A stretch of 25,935 bases of DNA from a virus (lineage: Duplodnaviria; Heunggongvirae; Uroviricota; Caudoviricetes), in the IMG/VR virus record IMGVR_UViG_2636415858_000002, positions 1 to 25,935 of that record. One strand, written 5' to 3'. Below are positions 4,321 to 11,343 of this stretch, in pieces (position 1 is the first letter of the stretch; each line of letters opens with the position of its first letter). The notes beneath the pieces were generated by a model. That model was not told the DNA's origin. It saw nothing but the letters and a program-made list of their open reading frames with translations, and ran no database searches. A program made the position numbers and the translations under genes.

Positions 4321-5872
<1,552 letters not shown>

Positions 5873-6017
5873 TGGAGCACCTGTGTTGTTCTGAGGTGAG
5901 CATATCACCTCTGTTCAGGTGGCCAAATTCAGTGTGCCACTTCAGGTGCCGAACCTTCCTCCGGATATAATCTGTGATTCCCCAATCAACAGAACCAGAG
6001 GAGGTTCGGCATAAACA

Positions 6018-6440
6018 TCAATGCACAACGACAGAATCGTCGGACGACCCACCACCGCTGAAATGTGCTTTCCGGTAAACGGCCTGAACTGCGTCATCAT
6101 GCGCATCAATTGCCGTACTCAACGCTTCCTGCGCCGCCAGTAATGCACGGCGTTCCAGGGTATCGAAGATACAGAGTCGGTGACGCAGCTCACGCGGAAG
6201 AATTGCCAGAACCGCAGGGATCAGTTTCTGAATTTTCTCCCTTTGCGCTTTCGTTTCACCTTTCAACCAACGGTGATAGATATTCTGCTGATTGTTCCAG
6301 TCCTTGCCTGGTACCAGAGGCAATTCGCCGCCCCCCTGCCGCAGATATTCTTCAGTAATTGCGTTAGCGACCCACGCCTGCCCTTTTTCGGCTGCCAGGG
6401 CTAACAGCACTGATTCGATGTGCTCATGCCTGATTTTCAT
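6018..6440 (-). CDS. ydaT: ydaT-like prophage protein (Rac-type CII-like/toxin-like)
   Basis: 140-aa ORF MKIRHEHIESVLLALAAEKGQAW...; resembles YdaT as recalled (MKIKHEHI... start); overlaps the upstream cro-like gene by 17 nt. Confidence 0.55.
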   Translation of the reverse strand: MKIRHEHIESVLLALAAEKGQAWVANAITEEYLRQGGGELPLVPGKDWNNQQNIYHRWLKGETKAQREKIQKLIPAVLAILPRELRHRLCIFDTLERRALLAAQEALSTAIDAHDDAVQAVYRKAHFSGGGSSDDSVVVH

Positions 6441-6651
6441 GAATCACCTTCCCAGGTCGTTTTGCCTTACGATATTCGTCATAAACTTTGGGGTCGTACT
6501 GAAGTTCCCCGCCAGATGCCTCTTGCAGGCGCATCGCGCGGCCTTCAGGAACCAGTTCCCCCCATGCAGCAATGCTTGCCAGCCTAACTCCTGCGGCATT
6601 GGCAAGCTTTGTTTTGCTGCCAAAAAACGCTATAGCATCAATTTTCAACAT
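6424..6651 (-). CDS. Cro/YdaS-like small HTH regulator
   Basis: 75-aa ORF with HTH-like region KTKLANAAGVRLASIAAWG; AGGAG RBS 6 nt upstream; divergent from the repressor gene. Confidence 0.6.
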   Translation of the reverse strand: MLKIDAIAFFGSKTKLANAAGVRLASIAAWGELVPEGRAMRLQEASGGELQYDPKVYDEYRKAKRPGKVIHENQA

Positions 6652-6658
6652 ATCGAGC

Positions 6659-6678
6659 TCCTTAGATTTTCCTAAGGA
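6659..6678. promoter_or_regulatory. operator-like palindrome tccttag-N6-ctaagga between divergent cro-like and repressor genes
   Basis: Perfect 7-bp inverted arms read directly; sits between the cro-like start (6651) and repressor start (6728). Confidence 0.4.
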
Positions 6679-6727
6679 AACTAGATCGTAGAGAAACCTA
6701 AGTCAAGAAAGATTAGAATTCCCTAAT

Positions 6728-7135
6728 ATGAAAAACGAAACCTTCGGTGCTCGCCTCTTACATAGGCGTAAAAAATTAAAACTGTCTCAGGCCGCATTAG
6801 GTAAGCTGGTCAAAGTGGCTCACGTAACAATTTCTCAATGGGAAAGAGATGAAACACAGCCGGCGGGGAAAAGATTATTCGCACTGAGCCAAGCGCTTCA
6901 GTGCTCACCGACTTGGCTTCTTTTTGGGGATGAAGATAAACAACCAGGCGAACCGATCCCGGATAATCAGCCAGCCATTCTGACAGAAGATCAAAAAGAG
7001 TTACTTCAACTGTTCGACGCACTGCCTGAGTCAGAGCAAAAGGCCCTGTTGTCAGAGATGCGTGCTCGAGTTGAAAATTTCAACAAACTTTTTGAAGAAC
7101 TACTCAAAACTCGCAAAAGAAGCGCAAACAAATAA
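6728..7135 (+). CDS. CI-like prophage repressor (XRE-family HTH N-domain with C-terminal extension)
   Basis: 135-aa ORF; HTH segment LKLSQAALGKLVKVAHVTISQWERDE; no obvious SD, possibly leaderless like lambda cI. Confidence 0.65.
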   Translation: MKNETFGARLLHRRKKLKLSQAALGKLVKVAHVTISQWERDETQPAGKRLFALSQALQCSPTWLLFGDEDKQPGEPIPDNQPAILTEDQKELLQLFDALPESEQKALLSEMRARVENFNKLFEELLKTRKRSANK

Positions 7136-7337
7136 TCCCCTTTTTTCTCCACACCCTGTAATAAAAAGCACAAACTTTCAAACACTTGTGTTTTTTACAT
7201 CAAAAAAACTTAGGTTTTTATACATAAAATCTTGACTCCACGTCTTAGGTTATTCTAAATTTCATTCATCAAGACACCGCACGGTGTTCTCAGCAAACAG
7301 TTCCACTACCCCGGCGTTAAGGGGAAATGAGGTCAGC

Positions 7338-7490
7338 ATGGATACTATCGATCTTGGCAACAACGAATCCCTAGTGTGTGGCGTGTTTCCCAATCAGGAC
7401 GGCACATTCACCGCCATGACGTATACCAAAAGCAAAACGTTTAAAACCGAAGCTGGCGCACGTCGCTGGCTTGCCAAAAATACCAGCTAA
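7338..7490 (+). CDS. ydfA: small prophage protein, YdfA-like (DUF1391-type)
   Basis: MDTIDLGNNESLVCGVFPNQDGTFTAMTYTKSKTFKTEAGARRWLAKNTS with GAGG RBS; start taken at internal Met of the 68-aa track ORF. Confidence 0.55.
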   Translation: MDTIDLGNNESLVCGVFPNQDGTFTAMTYTKSKTFKTEAGARRWLAKNTS

Positions 7491-7577
7491 TCCATTTATT
7501 GGATTAATTCAATATTCTCGCTGTAGAGGTATAGTGAGGTGTACTGGCAATAGCGGACACTACCATTTGTTCTTTTT

Positions 7578-8396
7578 TTAAGCAGCCATCTGATGATATT
7601 TTTCCCTGAAGGCTGCCGGGGAGATATTCCCCAGACGAGAGTGACGACGCTGACGATTGTAGAAAATCTCAATGTATTCCCGTATTACTGAGATGGCTTC
7701 ATCCCGGTTATTAAAACGATAGTGGCTCAGGCTCTCATTTTTCAGCGTTCCCCAGAAGCTTTCCATCGGAGCGTTGTCGTAACAGTGACCTTTACGCGAC
7801 ATTGATGTTTTCAGACCAGACTGCTCCTGTATGACCCGGTAATCGTATGCGCAGTACTGTGAACCTCGATCAGAGTGGTGGATTAGCCCGGCAGGTGGGC
7901 GCTGGCTCCTGAGCGCCATAAACAGGGCTTTACCTGTCAGCTCTTTTGTCATGCGCTCTCCCATGGCGTAGCCGACAATTTCGCACGTATAAACATCTTT
8001 GATGCCAGCGAGGTACAACCATCCCTCCTGTGTGGCAACATACGTCAGGTCCGCCACCCAGACCTGATTTGGTGCTGTAGGAGCGAACGTCTGGTTCAGC
8101 AGATTTGGCGCAACTGGCAGATTGTGGTTCGGGTTCGTAGTCGCTCTGAACTTGCGTTTCTGCTTACAGCGTAGCCTTAGCTCCTTACGAAGACGTGCCA
8201 GTCGGTCACGACCAACGATGATGCCATTCTCTGCCAGCTCCGTCTGGAGCCGCCGGGTTCCATATGTTTCGCGAGTGCGGATATGTGCCACCTTAATCTC
8301 CAGTTTTAGCCGCTCATCACTTTGTTTTCTGTCTGAGGGTTCATGCTGTACCCAGTTGTAATAACCGCTCCTGGATACACCAAATACCTGACACAT
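7578..8396 (-). CDS. IS600 OrfB
   Basis: 272-aa DDE transposase frame. Confidence 0.9.
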   Translation of the reverse strand: MCQVFGVSRSGYYNWVQHEPSDRKQSDERLKLEIKVAHIRTRETYGTRRLQTELAENGIIVGRDRLARLRKELRLRCKQKRKFRATTNPNHNLPVAPNLLNQTFAPTAPNQVWVADLTYVATQEGWLYLAGIKDVYTCEIVGYAMGERMTKELTGKALFMALRSQRPPAGLIHHSDRGSQYCAYDYRVIQEQSGLKTSMSRKGHCYDNAPMESFWGTLKNESLSHYRFNNRDEAISVIREYIEIFYNRQRRHSRLGNISPAAFREKYHQMAA

Positions 8397-8431
8397 CGCT
8401 TCAATGGGAAATTGTTGTCGCCATTGTTCGA

Positions 8432-8734
8432 TTAACGCGTATTTTTCAGCGACTCCTGTGCAAAATACGCTGTTGCTTTTTTTAATATATCTCGCTCAAG
8501 GCGAGCTTCATTTAACGCCTTACGCAGTTGCAGAATTTCAGATTCCAGTTCAGCCACCGTGCGGGAACCAGGAGTACCGAGCCCTTTTCTGGCGGCGGTA
8601 ACCCATTGTCCTAAAGTGCCTTCAGGAAGGGATAATCGGGAAGCGCCTTCACTGATCGAAAGTTGATTTTCAAGAACCGTTCTGACAGCTTCGGCTTTGA
8701 ACTCTTTAGAGTAACGTTGGTTTTTTCTGCTCAT
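8432..8734 (-). CDS. IS600 OrfA (100 aa)
   Basis: MSRKNQRYSKEFKAEAVRTVLENQLSISEGASRLSLPEGTLGQW...KKATAYFAQESLKNTR. Confidence 0.9.
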   Translation of the reverse strand: MSRKNQRYSKEFKAEAVRTVLENQLSISEGASRLSLPEGTLGQWVTAARKGLGTPGSRTVAELESEILQLRKALNEARLERDILKKATAYFAQESLKNTR

Positions 8735-8857
8735 TATTAGCTCCTTCTGATGCCATTCTATTTCAGGAAGGAGTGTCCGTTAAACTCAGGCTACCTCAGC
8801 CTGAGGGCAGGTGTAAAACAATAATCAAGCATGGGGTTCATATCCATAGCTCCATTT

Positions 8858-9403
8858 TTATTTTAAGGAAAGCAACTGCTCTACGGTCATGTTTTTAATT
8901 GCGCCCCGGTTTACAAGAGTCCAGCCCTGTTTTTCCAGATAAAACCGGAAAGTCTCCAGGGTACAGACCAGTGCGCCATCAGGAACGGTTTCGGTGAATT
9001 CGACATTGCCGAATTTGTCGAAGTGAACAACCAGAGTGCGACCATCACCCGGAATCATCTTGTCAGCAGGTGGGGTGTTATTCTGGCGCAGTTCGGCCTC
9101 CATGCGGTCGAACTCAGCAATGTAGGCTTCCTTGAATGTGGCGGCTTTTTTGCCCGTGAAGCCCATCACCAGGAAAACGAAGCCGTTTTTGGTGATTTGG
9201 TAGGCGTTATAAGAATTGCCGCGGTGTTCGAATTTAACCCGCGAAAAGTTGCTGGTTAAAAATAGTTCAGAACATTCGAAGGATTCTATTTTTTGAACAA
9301 CATGGTGATGCTGCTTGCCAAAAAACTCAGCAATCGAAATAGAAGTAGTGACGGCGCGACCATTTTCGATGGTTACGTCAGGGTGAGAAAGGGTAGTAGC
9401 CAT
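8858..9403 (-). CDS. rha: Rha-family phage regulatory protein
   Basis: Start MATTLSHPDVTIENGRAVTTSISIAEFFGKQHHHVVQKIESF... with GAGGA RBS; the longer track ORF (to 9697) is an in-frame non-coding extension. Confidence 0.7.
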   Translation of the reverse strand: MATTLSHPDVTIENGRAVTTSISIAEFFGKQHHHVVQKIESFECSELFLTSNFSRVKFEHRGNSYNAYQITKNGFVFLVMGFTGKKAATFKEAYIAEFDRMEAELRQNNTPPADKMIPGDGRTLVVHFDKFGNVEFTETVPDGALVCTLETFRFYLEKQGWTLVNRGAIKNMTVEQLLSLK

Positions 9404-9567
9404 AATGACATCCTCAAGTGATAAGTTAATTAACTCACCAGCAGAGGTGCTAATCTCATGGGTGGTGAGACGCACAGGGTTAGCACTACCGGTCACTCGA
9501 GAACCCGGCCAGCCTTGCGGCTGCCCCGCACGCCTCACCATAATTTGAATGTGGCTGTGCATTACGC

Positions 9568-9592
9568 ATAAAAAAACCGCTTCAGCGCGGTT
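9568..9592 (-). terminator. intrinsic terminator candidate (stem aaccgc/gcggtt, loop 6 nt, 7 U on minus strand)
   Basis: Plus strand ataaaaaaaccgcttcagcgcggtt. Confidence 0.45.
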
Positions 9593-9719
9593 ATGCGCTC
9601 GAGTAACTTTCGGGGTGCTAATCCCGGCACCCGTTTTATGAGGTGCAGGTGCACTATAATTCCACCCGTTCTGGTTTTCAATAGCTACATTCAACATTTT
9701 CTCTTTCCTTTCATCACCG

Positions 9720-9874
9720 AAGTGAATTTTGTGATGCGGTGCCTAGTGCCTCCAGGTGACGTTAACCAGTTAACAATTACAGTCGGCTTTCCCACCCAAA
9801 CCAATAAGGACTAACATGACTTTTAACTGTGCCGCGTGCGCTTAGCCGCATTCACCGCATCACAAAATTCACTT
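9720..9874. repeat. 22-bp perfect inverted repeats (aagtgaattttgtgatgcggtg / caccgcatcacaaaattcactt) flanking a 111-bp core
   Basis: Read directly: left arm 9720..9741, right arm 9853..9874; core contains near-palindrome gttaaccagttaac. Confidence 0.7.
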
Positions 9875-10141
9875 TAAAAAGGGCGGACATCAGCCAGCAA
9901 TTAAACCGATGCCGCCAACTGGTACTTCACACAGCAATGTCGTTATTTACAACCGGAAGCGCACTCCCACCATTTAAATTTCACAGACAAGACCGACTCT
10001 TTATGAATACCGGAAATGCGCCTTCGTGTTGTGCCCGGTTTTATTTCACCACCTCCGGGCTTTGGTGGCCTCGGCTATGAGGTAGCCTGAGTTTAACGGA
10101 CACTCCTTCCTGAAATAGAATGGCATCAGAAGGAGCTAATA

Positions 10142-10444
10142 ATGAGCAGAAAAAACCAACGTTACTCTAAAGAGTTCAAAGCCGAAGCTGTCAGAACGGT
10201 TCTTGAAAATCAACTTTCGATCAGTGAAGGCGCTTCCCGATTATCCCTTCCTGAAGGCACTTTAGGACAATGGGTTACCGCCGCCAGAAAAGGGCTCGGT
10301 ACTCCTGGTTCCCGCACGGTGGCTGAACTGGAATCTGAAATTCTGCAACTGCGTAAGGCGTTAAATGAAGCTCGCCTTGAGCGAGATATATTAAAAAAAG
10401 CAACAGCGTATTTTGCACAGGAGTCGCTGAAAAATACGCGTTAA
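10142..10444 (+). CDS. IS600 OrfA (100 aa)
   Basis: Identical protein to 8432..8734. Confidence 0.9.
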   Translation: MSRKNQRYSKEFKAEAVRTVLENQLSISEGASRLSLPEGTLGQWVTAARKGLGTPGSRTVAELESEILQLRKALNEARLERDILKKATAYFAQESLKNTR

Positions 10445-10479
10445 TCGAACAATGGCGACAACAATTTCCCATTGAAGCG

Positions 10480-11298
10480 ATGTGTCAGGTATTTGGTGTA
10501 TCCAGGAGCGGTTATTACAACTGGGTACAGCATGAACCCTCAGACAGAAAACAAAGTGATGAGCGGCTAAAACTGGAGATTAAGGTGGCACATATCCGCA
10601 CTCGCGAAACATATGGAACCCGGCGGCTCCAGACGGAGCTGGCAGAGAATGGCATCATCGTTGGTCGTGACCGACTGGCACGTCTTCGTAAGGAGCTAAG
10701 GCTACGCTGTAAGCAGAAACGCAAGTTCAGAGCGACTACGAACCCGAACCACAATCTGCCAGTTGCGCCAAATCTGCTGAACCAGACGTTCGCTCCTACA
10801 GCACCAAATCAGGTCTGGGTGGCGGACCTGACGTATGTTGCCACACAGGAGGGATGGTTGTACCTCGCTGGCATCAAAGATGTTTATACGTGCGAAATTG
10901 TCGGCTACGCCATGGGAGAGCGCATGACAAAAGAGCTGACAGGTAAAGCCCTGTTTATGGCGCTCAGGAGCCAGCGCCCACCTGCCGGGCTAATCCACCA
11001 CTCTGATCGAGGTTCACAGTACTGCGCATACGATTACCGGGTCATACAGGAGCAGTCTGGTCTGAAAACATCAATGTCGCGTAAAGGTCACTGTTACGAC
11101 AACGCTCCGATGGAAAGCTTCTGGGGAACGCTGAAAAATGAGAGCCTGAGCCACTATCGTTTTAATAACCGGGATGAAGCCATCTCAGTAATACGGGAAT
11201 ACATTGAGATTTTCTACAATCGTCAGCGTCGTCACTCTCGTCTGGGGAATATCTCCCCGGCAGCCTTCAGGGAAAAATATCATCAGATGGCTGCTTAA
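10480..11298 (+). CDS. IS600 OrfB
   Basis: Identical protein to 7578..8396; frame is -1 relative to orfA across the A7 run at 10393..10399. Confidence 0.9.
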   Translation: MCQVFGVSRSGYYNWVQHEPSDRKQSDERLKLEIKVAHIRTRETYGTRRLQTELAENGIIVGRDRLARLRKELRLRCKQKRKFRATTNPNHNLPVAPNLLNQTFAPTAPNQVWVADLTYVATQEGWLYLAGIKDVYTCEIVGYAMGERMTKELTGKALFMALRSQRPPAGLIHHSDRGSQYCAYDYRVIQEQSGLKTSMSRKGHCYDNAPMESFWGTLKNESLSHYRFNNRDEAISVIREYIEIFYNRQRRHSRLGNISPAAFREKYHQMAA

Positions 11299-11343
11299 AA
11301 AAAGAACAAATGGTAGTGTCCGCTATTGCCAGTACACCTCATG

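Follow-up and report, generated by a model that had tools for sequence, protein, structure and literature searches.

The stretch of DNA analysed here (25,935 bp, in the following called the window) is heavily loaded with insertion sequences. BLAST and domain searches identified four IS600 copies and one IS66-family element, and open reading frames resembling IS1 and another IS3-family element were recognized by eye. Together with a gene for an IpaH-type NEL ligase, found within the window by domain search, this IS content suggests a Shigella-like host. Similarity to L003, an intact relative, was detected by BLAST only over positions 6017-7473. The genes and features of this locus are compiled in Table 1.

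Since the repressor belongs to the DicA family, the divergent gene is DicC and the downstream gene is ydfA, the locus represents an immunity module of the Qin type, in which dicC is transcribed away from dicA and dicBp follows in the direction of dicA; this gene order is annotated alike in thousands of E. coli genomes, including the Qin prophage of K-12. The repressor displays an HTH at the N-terminus and a short C-terminal domain, and the Pfam search with its 135 aa returned HTH families only, with no peptidase or cleavable domain. The DicC-like open reading frame of 75 aa additionally matched Pfam P22_Cro (49.7 bits, cutoff 30.2, E 3e-13). On the other side, ydfA is the first and here the sole remaining gene of the dicB-type operon, and the final 17 nt of its 3' end are unlike those of relatives. 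The dicF/dicB division-inhibitor cargo is missing downstream, as similarity to L003 stops at 7473, an IS600 copy follows and the segment past it (8801-9900) was found by BLAST to be inverted relative to L003. As a consequence of the IS600-associated loss beyond ydfA, and with similarity to L003 ending just past ydaT, the operators described below are left to control only dicC-ydaT and ydfA. The window is thus an IS-riddled prophage remnant and its immunity switch a remnant as well.

Table 1. Genes, promoters, candidate operators and RNA elements of the immunity locus (positions refer to the window).
Feature	Positions	Strand	Evidence or remarks
IS-type integrase ORFs	4818-5908		just past the ydaT-side end of L003 similarity; ORF 4818-5543 with rve integrase core
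ydaT-like gene	6018-6440	-	Pfam YdaT_toxin, E 2.4e-11; second gene of the dicC (P_R-like) operon
dicC-like gene, Cro analogue, 75 aa	6424-6651	-	NCBIfam NF007282 (DicC), 158 bits, cutoff 130
Oc-type candidate operator	6659-6678		TCCTTAGATTTTCCTAAGGA; perfect 7+6+7 palindrome, same position as K-12 Oc
dicCp-like promoter	6680-6708	-	-35 TTGACT 6708-6703, 17-nt spacer, -10 TAGTTT 6685-6680
Om-type candidate site	6687-6702		CGTAGAGAAACCTAAG; one mismatch to the dyad; between dicCp -35 and -10
Oa-type candidate site	6712-6727		ATTAGAATTCCCTAAT; perfect ATTAG/CTAAT dyad adjoining the dicA ATG
dicA-like repressor gene, 135 aa	6728-7135	+	NCBIfam NF007257 (DicA), 236 bits, cutoff 101, residues 1-135
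Intrinsic-terminator-like hairpin and U-run	7162-7197	+	RNA fold -9.6 kcal/mol, z -4.5; inverted repeat I10
OB1, candidate site	7209-7224		CTTAGGTTTTTATACA; upstream of the dicBp-like -35; 35 bp upstream of OB2
dicBp-like promoter	7232-7261	+	TTGACT, 18-nt spacer, TAAATT
OB2, candidate site	7244-7259		CTTAGGTTATTCTAAA; one mismatch; between -35 and -10, overlapping -10
Two-hairpin leader RNA of the dicBp transcript	7267-7332	+	conserved; adjacent to the operator set, outside it
ydfA-like gene (DUF1391)	7338-7490	+	Pfam DUF1391, E 8e-30
IS600 copy severing the operon	7535-8798	-	self-BLAST, BLAST against L003, rve and HTH_21 domains; annotated IS600 in L003

The probable recognition unit of the locus is a dyad of 16-20 bp, (C)CTTAG-N6-CTAAG(G), which occurs five times, as Oc, Om and Oa within the 76-bp intergenic region of dicC and dicA and as OB1 and OB2 behind dicA. 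At Oc the palindrome tccttag-N6-ctaagga of the original prediction was recovered as described. It touches the -10 element of dicCp and covers the start region of this promoter, and its outer arm overlaps the Shine-Dalgarno sequence of dicC (AAGGAG, 6663-6658). The minus-strand TTGACT that had been noted nearby was likewise found (6703-6708). The assignment of the dicCp-like promoter rests on its alignment with K-12 dicCp (TTGACT-17-TATCTT), the transcription start of which was mapped by 5'RACE (PMC3441716); because its -10 element TAGTTT agrees in only 3/6 positions, it remained below the threshold of a sigma-70 promoter scan. Om, which reads CTTAGGTTTCTCTACG on the minus strand, is kept in relatives sharing the Oc type and displays the geometry of P22 OR2, and Oa, which had been missed in the first description of the divergent region, is kept across the DicA family. 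From centre to centre, Oc, Om and Oa are spaced by 26 and 25 bp. Oa contains a -10-like TAGAAT (6714-6719) only 8 nt before the dicA ATG, and no Shine-Dalgarno sequence is present, which implies that the dicA mRNA is probably leaderless or nearly so, if TAGAAT indeed serves as the promoter element.

Behind dicA, the hairpin at 7162-7197, to which 0/200 shuffles were equal in stability, is terminator-like and would insulate dicA from the next promoter. A third P_L-side operator was considered at 7185-7200 (CTTGTGTTTTTTACAT, repeat D4) and rejected, as the sequence has 5/10 mismatches to the dyad and belongs, as its 3' arm, to the terminator hairpin behind dicA. The plus-strand TTGACT reported earlier at 7232-7237 is present and forms the -35 element of the dicBp-like promoter, one of only two promoter-like matches in a scan of positions 6400-7500, which aligns with K-12 dicBp (TTGACC-17-TAATCT). 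OB2 is the most conserved block of the downstream region among 12 diverse relatives, and its geometry is that of P22 OL1. The left half-site of OB1 is intact and its right half is degraded, so that the copy at 7209 is no more than a half-site in the window: the right half was destroyed by an A at 7220 that is private to the window, 11/12 aligned sequences having a C instead, which gives CTACA.

The least explained feature nearby is the conserved two-hairpin leader at 7267-7332. No Rfam family was assigned to it at E<=1, and it is without similarity to HK022 putL (located at about 811-740 on the minus strand of L027), which was placed by the residue numbering of PMC9378689. A covariance model built from the leader matched neither HK022 nor P22, and on the P_R side it revealed no convincing second copy.

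The octamer cttaggtt (CTTAGGTT) had been described as a motif recurring twice downstream of the repressor. Both plus-strand copies are there (7209-7216 and 7244-7251, 35 bp apart), and a further one lies on the minus strand at 6695-6702, inside cttgacttaggtt and included in the minus-strand reading of Om; the octamer itself, however, did not prove to be a functional unit. It consists of the half-site CTTAG and three spacer bases, GTT, with which Om (minus strand), OB1 and OB2 all start. As a direct-repeat unit it was rejected, since each of the copies is part of a longer dyad and it is this dyad, not the octamer, that relatives keep.

Short A/T-rich words recur easily, and the recurrence of the motif might be attributed to chance in A/T-rich intergenic DNA. 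Three copies of the octamer, all of them flanking one gene, are present in the 25,935 bp against 0.58 expected, and three copies were also reached in 3/100 shuffles of the whole window. As for the dyad, CTTAG-N6-CTAAG with one mismatch at most was matched three times against 0.49 expected, a number reached by 0/100 shuffles, and all matches fall within the 278 bp of intergenic DNA (76 and 202 bp) beside the repressor gene, with none in the other 25,657 bp. When both intergenic regions were shuffled 20,000 times with matched composition, two shuffles gave two matches and none gave three. Moreover, even relatives whose repressor is only about 70% identical have the sites at equal positions. Chance is refuted by the shuffles together with the alignment and has next to no probability left; the motifs are non-random, strongly and far beyond chance.

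The closest counterpart of the locus is found in Qin of E. coli K-12. Both share the order of a ydaT-type gene, dicC, dicA, terminator, promoter and ydfA, and in both five dyads with a TTAG-N6-CTAA core are found at equal positions relative to promoters and start codons, the K-12 version being TGTTAG-N6-CTAACA. DicA is 61% identical between the two, and at the DNA level identity reaches about 93% in leader RNA and ydfA. Qin runs dicC, dicA, ydfA-ydfB-ydfC-dicF-dicB and hence keeps the dicF/dicB part of the operon, which was lost here through IS600 insertion and inversion. The divergent intergenic region measures 76 bp here and 83 bp in Qin, which accounts for the overlap of Oc with the dicC Shine-Dalgarno sequence in the window. 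Above all, the half-sites differ: the Qin operator TTGTTAG-N6-CTAACAA is not matched in the window, which has TCCTTAG-N6-CTAAGGA, so that half-sites read CCTTAG/CTAAGG here and TGTTAG/CTAACA there, and the outer half-site base is C, not G as in Qin, at all strong half-sites. Judged from these sequences, the CCTTAG-type locus probably has an immunity specificity different from that of Qin.

For the K-12 allele several of these sites have been studied experimentally. K-12 Oc (TTGTTAGTCATAACTAACAA), a 20-bp palindrome beside dicC, titrates DicA and confers DicA-dependent repression on a reporter, which is abolished by a single A-to-C change; DicA acting at Oc represses dicC and stimulates dicA, and Om and Oa were predicted from sequence, although neither bound DicA alone (data not shown in that study; PMC3441716). 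The interval between dicA and dicBp in Qin was stated to carry operators analogous to lambda OL, and K-12 dicBp is strongly repressed by DicA (PMC10448788). Derepression of Qin was ascribed to the antirepressor Rem, heat or urea and not to RecA cleavage (PMC10448788). That dicCp and dicBp are analogous to lambdoid OR/OL has itself been published already, according to the citation of Bejar 1988 in PMC10448788.

A second counterpart is immC of phage P22. The N-terminal domain of P22 c2 is 62% identical to residues 1-68 of DicA (E 2e-27), where the alignment ends, and the best PDB matches of this domain of DicA were 1ADR and 2R1J. The operators of P22 are known from experiment, and their positions were assigned here by reading the dyads with the P22 consensus as a guide. 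Three operators lie between the divergent genes in both systems, OR3 adjoins the c2 ATG as Oa adjoins that of dicA, and OR2 overlaps the TTGACT -35 element of PR, the counterpart here being Om. OL1 is situated between the -35 and -10 elements of PL with OL2 centred 35 bp upstream, which matches the layout of OB2 and OB1. The OR spacings in P22 amount to 23 and 25 bp, centre to centre, compared to 26 and 25 bp here. The sequences themselves are different, with P22 half-sites ATTTAAG-N4-CTTAAAT in 18-bp operators and CCTTAG half-sites around a 6-bp centre in the window, and when centred on each other both share only T3-T4-A5. P22 c2 has 216 aa with a RecA-cleavable C-terminal domain and is a full-length LexA-like repressor, whereas the repressor of the window has 135 aa and matches HTH families only. 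Furthermore, an N-type antiterminator gene (24) and a nut site follow PL in P22, in contrast to the different conserved leader and ydfA behind the dicBp-like promoter.

With lambda the locus shares the logic of a repressor gene that has a divergent tripartite operator on one side and, at the leftward promoter, a second operator cluster on the other. The lambda cI transcript from PRM is leaderless, a property that is only probable for dicA of the window. Lambda differs in having three sites on the left side, where two clear sites are present here, and in its CI-type C-terminal domain, which is not found in the repressor of the window. The nearest relatives found of this repressor are the N-terminal domains of P22 c2 and phage 21 cI. 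As it has 135 aa and its C-terminal part matched no cleavable domain, Qin and P22 immC, not lambda, are the closest model for the locus.

A search for the same sites in related prophages, which had been proposed along with the motifs, showed them to be conserved and to co-vary across dicA; the lack of conservation that had been named as a refutation was not observed. The exact palindrome pattern was present in at least 119 viral contigs; among the matches listed, 47 contigs carried a neighbouring DicA homologue (70-99% identical), with the palindrome always 69-70 nt before its ATG. Two [CT]TTA[GA]-N6-CTA[AC] sites follow dicA in 43/43 of the listed contigs with a complete downstream region, 36 bp apart in 41 of these loci and 35 bp apart in 2. 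An alignment of 12 diverse downstream regions displayed invariant columns in OB1 and OB2, and both the -35 element itself and the DNA between it and OB2 vary.

Co-variation was examined in 21 loci from other species. The half-site type TGTTAG-N6-CTAACA is found in K-12, other Escherichia, Citrobacter and Rahnella, TGTTGAG in Citrobacter braakii and Superficieibacter, TTGAG-N4-CTCAA in Buttiauxella and TAAC-N4-GTTA in two further loci. In each locus the half-site type of the dicC-dicA region matches that of the region after dicA, which argues for one protein family reading both regions. A cross-locus score matrix separated the half-site types modestly, owing to the TTAG/CTAA core common to all of them. 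Conservation and co-variation are in part inherited through shared ancestry and not independently selected, and some of the conservation has a second cause, as Om partly doubles as the -35 element of dicCp and Oc partly coincides with the dicC Shine-Dalgarno sequence.

A rival view is that only Oc, and perhaps OB2, are real operators, and that Om, OB1 and Oa are conserved as parts of promoters (-35 elements, UP-like A/T tracts and -10 elements). It would agree with the failure of K-12 DicA to bind isolated Om or Oa (PMC3441716, data not shown there), with the overlap of Om and the TTGACT -35 element and the presence of the -10-like TAGAAT within Oa, and with right halves of Om and OB1 that read CTAC instead of CTAA in all relatives. 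However, OB1 lies upstream of the -35 element and is nevertheless better conserved than the latter, and in TGTTAG-type relatives it is a perfect 18-bp palindrome of the locus's own Oc type (TGTTAGACTAATCTAACA), for which a promoter role is insufficient. An explanation by promoters alone fails at this point. P22 has experimentally known operators at equal positions, and lambdoid switches as a rule include weak auxiliary sites that are bound cooperatively. We consider it improbable that the set shrinks to Oc and OB2; as neither Om nor Oa alone was bound by K-12 DicA, Om, Oa and OB1 may by analogy be weak, dependent on cooperativity or preferred by DicC.

The motifs are very probably the operators of a Qin/P22 immC-type switch of immunity run by DicA and DicC, with (C)CTTAG-N6-CTAAG(G) as their unit. 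What was observed directly is the identity of the genes, the positions and statistics of the sites, and their conservation and co-variation across dicA; protein binding, the order in which the sites are filled, autoactivation and a leaderless start are predictions. The dyad would be recognized by DicA, the 135-aa HTH protein, as a dimer and, with another site preference, by the Cro-like DicC. By homology to K-12, DicA at Oc (and Om) would block transcription of dicC-ydaT and stimulate its own weak, probably leaderless promoter, and at OB2 (and OB1) it would block the promoter of the leftward operon. Upon failure of DicA, DicC would take the same sites, Oa first, and dicA would be shut off.

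Alternatively, the main user of the sites could be DicC, the Cro-like protein, or a host factor, with DicA acting elsewhere or only at Oc. The direct in vivo support for K-12 sites flanking dicA indeed stems from ChIP-seq of DicC, in which one site was inferred on each side of dicA with the palindromic pattern TT(A/C/T)G...C(G/A/T)AA (PMC11430063). In the Reg-Seq study the location of DicA binding at dicB was given as unknown (PMC7567609), and YjdC, a host factor, was reported as a repressor of DicA targets in work cited in PMC11430063. Against this stand the strong repression of K-12 dicBp by DicA (PMC10448788) and the genetic evidence for DicA binding at Oc (PMC3441716). Across the family, moreover, the operator type flanking dicA shifts along with the HTH sequence of the repressor, and P22 c2, to which the N-terminal domain of DicA is so similar, binds both OR and OL. 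A switch run mainly without DicA is accordingly given very little probability, lower than that of the reduction to Oc and OB2. The proposal that operators flank the repressor gene, as in lambda OL/OR, is therefore supported: it is backed by the identities of both proteins, by the K-12 data and by conservation and co-variation of the sites. The analogy has been published for Qin, and binding by the present allele is a prediction.

As to the origin of the different half-sites, one might tentatively think of several mutually heteroimmune DicA classes, in which the choice between CCTTAG and TGTTAG would be set by a residue outside the recognition helix and in which Om and OB1, with their invariant, non-consensus CTAC right halves, would be inherently weak, cooperative sites, although we consider this extension of the operator reading rather doubtful. 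In every TGTTAG- or TGTTGAG-type locus examined (seven lineages), helix 2 of the HTH starts with Thr-Gln-Arg, whereas in the CCTTAG, TTGAG and P22 types Gln is followed by one of Ala, Ser or Asn at this position. Helix 3 (VAHVTISQWER) is identical between one C-type and one G-type repressor. In the literature searched, no usable residue-level contacts of P22 c2 with DNA were found for the idea that Arg reads guanine. If true, weak sites with CTAC halves would need cooperativity from a repressor without the classical CI-type C-terminal domain.

Overall, the finding is real but ordinary, because the arrangement has already been described in E. coli K-12, apart from the half-site, which differs here. 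Specific to the window are the different class of operator half-sites and the local decay of OB1, and the general understanding of such switches is unchanged by the locus. It has modest value for annotation, as operators and promoters are assigned at base level for a DicA immunity type common in E. coli, whereas in the literature searched only the K-12 allele had been examined. The same type is present, for example, in locus L004 of the O157:H7 strain RIMD 0509939 and in records of PPompW phages, E. coli FDAARGOS_943 carries this kind of prophage too, and remnants of related prophages also have the type. For K-12 itself, the comparative alignment pins the DicA site at dicBp to two dyads. Finally, repressor, Cro and operator core have stayed intact in a prophage that is otherwise heavily eroded by insertion sequences, which is consistent with selection keeping dicC-ydaT silent.

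Between the dicBp-like promoter and the ydfA-like gene, a leader RNA folding into two hairpins was recognised, which was kept across DicA-family loci, including those with a different downstream gene. In single-sequence folds the position of hairpin I was unchanged in 13 of 14 variants, and its stem sequences were found to vary (GACACC/GGUGUU, AAUCAC/GUGAUU, CCAAUCAC/GUGGUUGG and others). Hairpin II displayed compensatory changes (CG to GC and CG to UA) as well as a conserved loop, GCG(A/U)UAA. A covariance model of the leader found a single copy per locus in most DicA-family loci searched and none in the comparison loci L017, L019, L021 and L022; every copy found was located 3' of a dicBp-like promoter. 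The leader matched nothing in Rfam, nor did it resemble HK022 putL or the nutL region of P22. One idea is that it acts as a processive-antitermination or stability element.

Features located in the window
Feature	Position	Strand	Remark
IS600 copy	1770-2998
DicA residues 20-22	6785-6793		start of HTH helix 2
dicA terminator hairpin	7162-7197		A-run and T-run on its flanks
Two-hairpin leader RNA	7267-7332	+	conserved across DicA-family loci
IS600 copy	7535-8798
279-aa ORF	8858-9697	-	Ash and Phage_pRha domains
IS600 copy	10078-11341		inverted
IS600 copy	20934-22196
IpaH-type ORF	24124-25935	-	LRR_TTSS and NEL E3 ubiquitin ligase; runs past window end

Enterobacterial-type, Qin-like dicA-ydfA DNA was also encountered on three genome contigs (L008, L015, L018) that bear the labels of Collinsella, Bacillota and Veillonella parvula MAGs. 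Their ydfA leader and start of ydfA were nearly identical to those of E. coli, and binning contamination is the likely source of this DNA.

With an A-run on one side of its hairpin and a T-run on the other, the dicA terminator looks bidirectional. Its 3' arm shares 81% identity (repeat D4) with the start of OB1, the first of two predicted operator dyads downstream of dicA; a third operator at this arm was considered and rejected, the likeness being judged a coincidence of T-rich sequence.

With regard to the repressor itself, comparison of the window's DicA with L001-L022 showed that Thr-Gln-Arg opens HTH helix 2 (DicA residues 20-22) in all seven lineages with TGTTAG- or TGTTGAG-type operator half-sites, and that repressors of the CCTTAG type, to which the window's own belongs, carry Ser-Gln-Ala or Ser-Gln-Ser there. 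Helix 3 showed no difference between one C-type and one G-type repressor. Arg22 might possibly read the outer G of the half-site, which is only hypothetical because the lineages are related.

Downstream, the final 17 nt of ydfA, from 7474 on, are replaced, and segment 8801-9900 lies in reverse orientation relative to the matching DNA of the intact relative L003. Together with the IS600 copies, this reversed match suggests that the remainder of the dicB-type operon was disconnected through an inversion mediated by IS600. The Ash/Phage_pRha ORF possibly encodes a regulator or an antirepressor-type protein; its L003 homologue has the same orientation as dicA and is situated downstream within the left operon. 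The IpaH-type ORF points to Shigella or enteroinvasive E. coli as host of the prophage remnant.

In OB1, the A at 7220 is private to the window (C in 11 of 12 aligned sequences), and the spacing from OB1 to OB2, the second dyad, is 35 bp as opposed to 36 bp in 41 of 43 relatives; the positions concerned are 7220 and 7225-7231. The private A and the 35-bp spacing fit a relaxation of selection once the operon had been severed.
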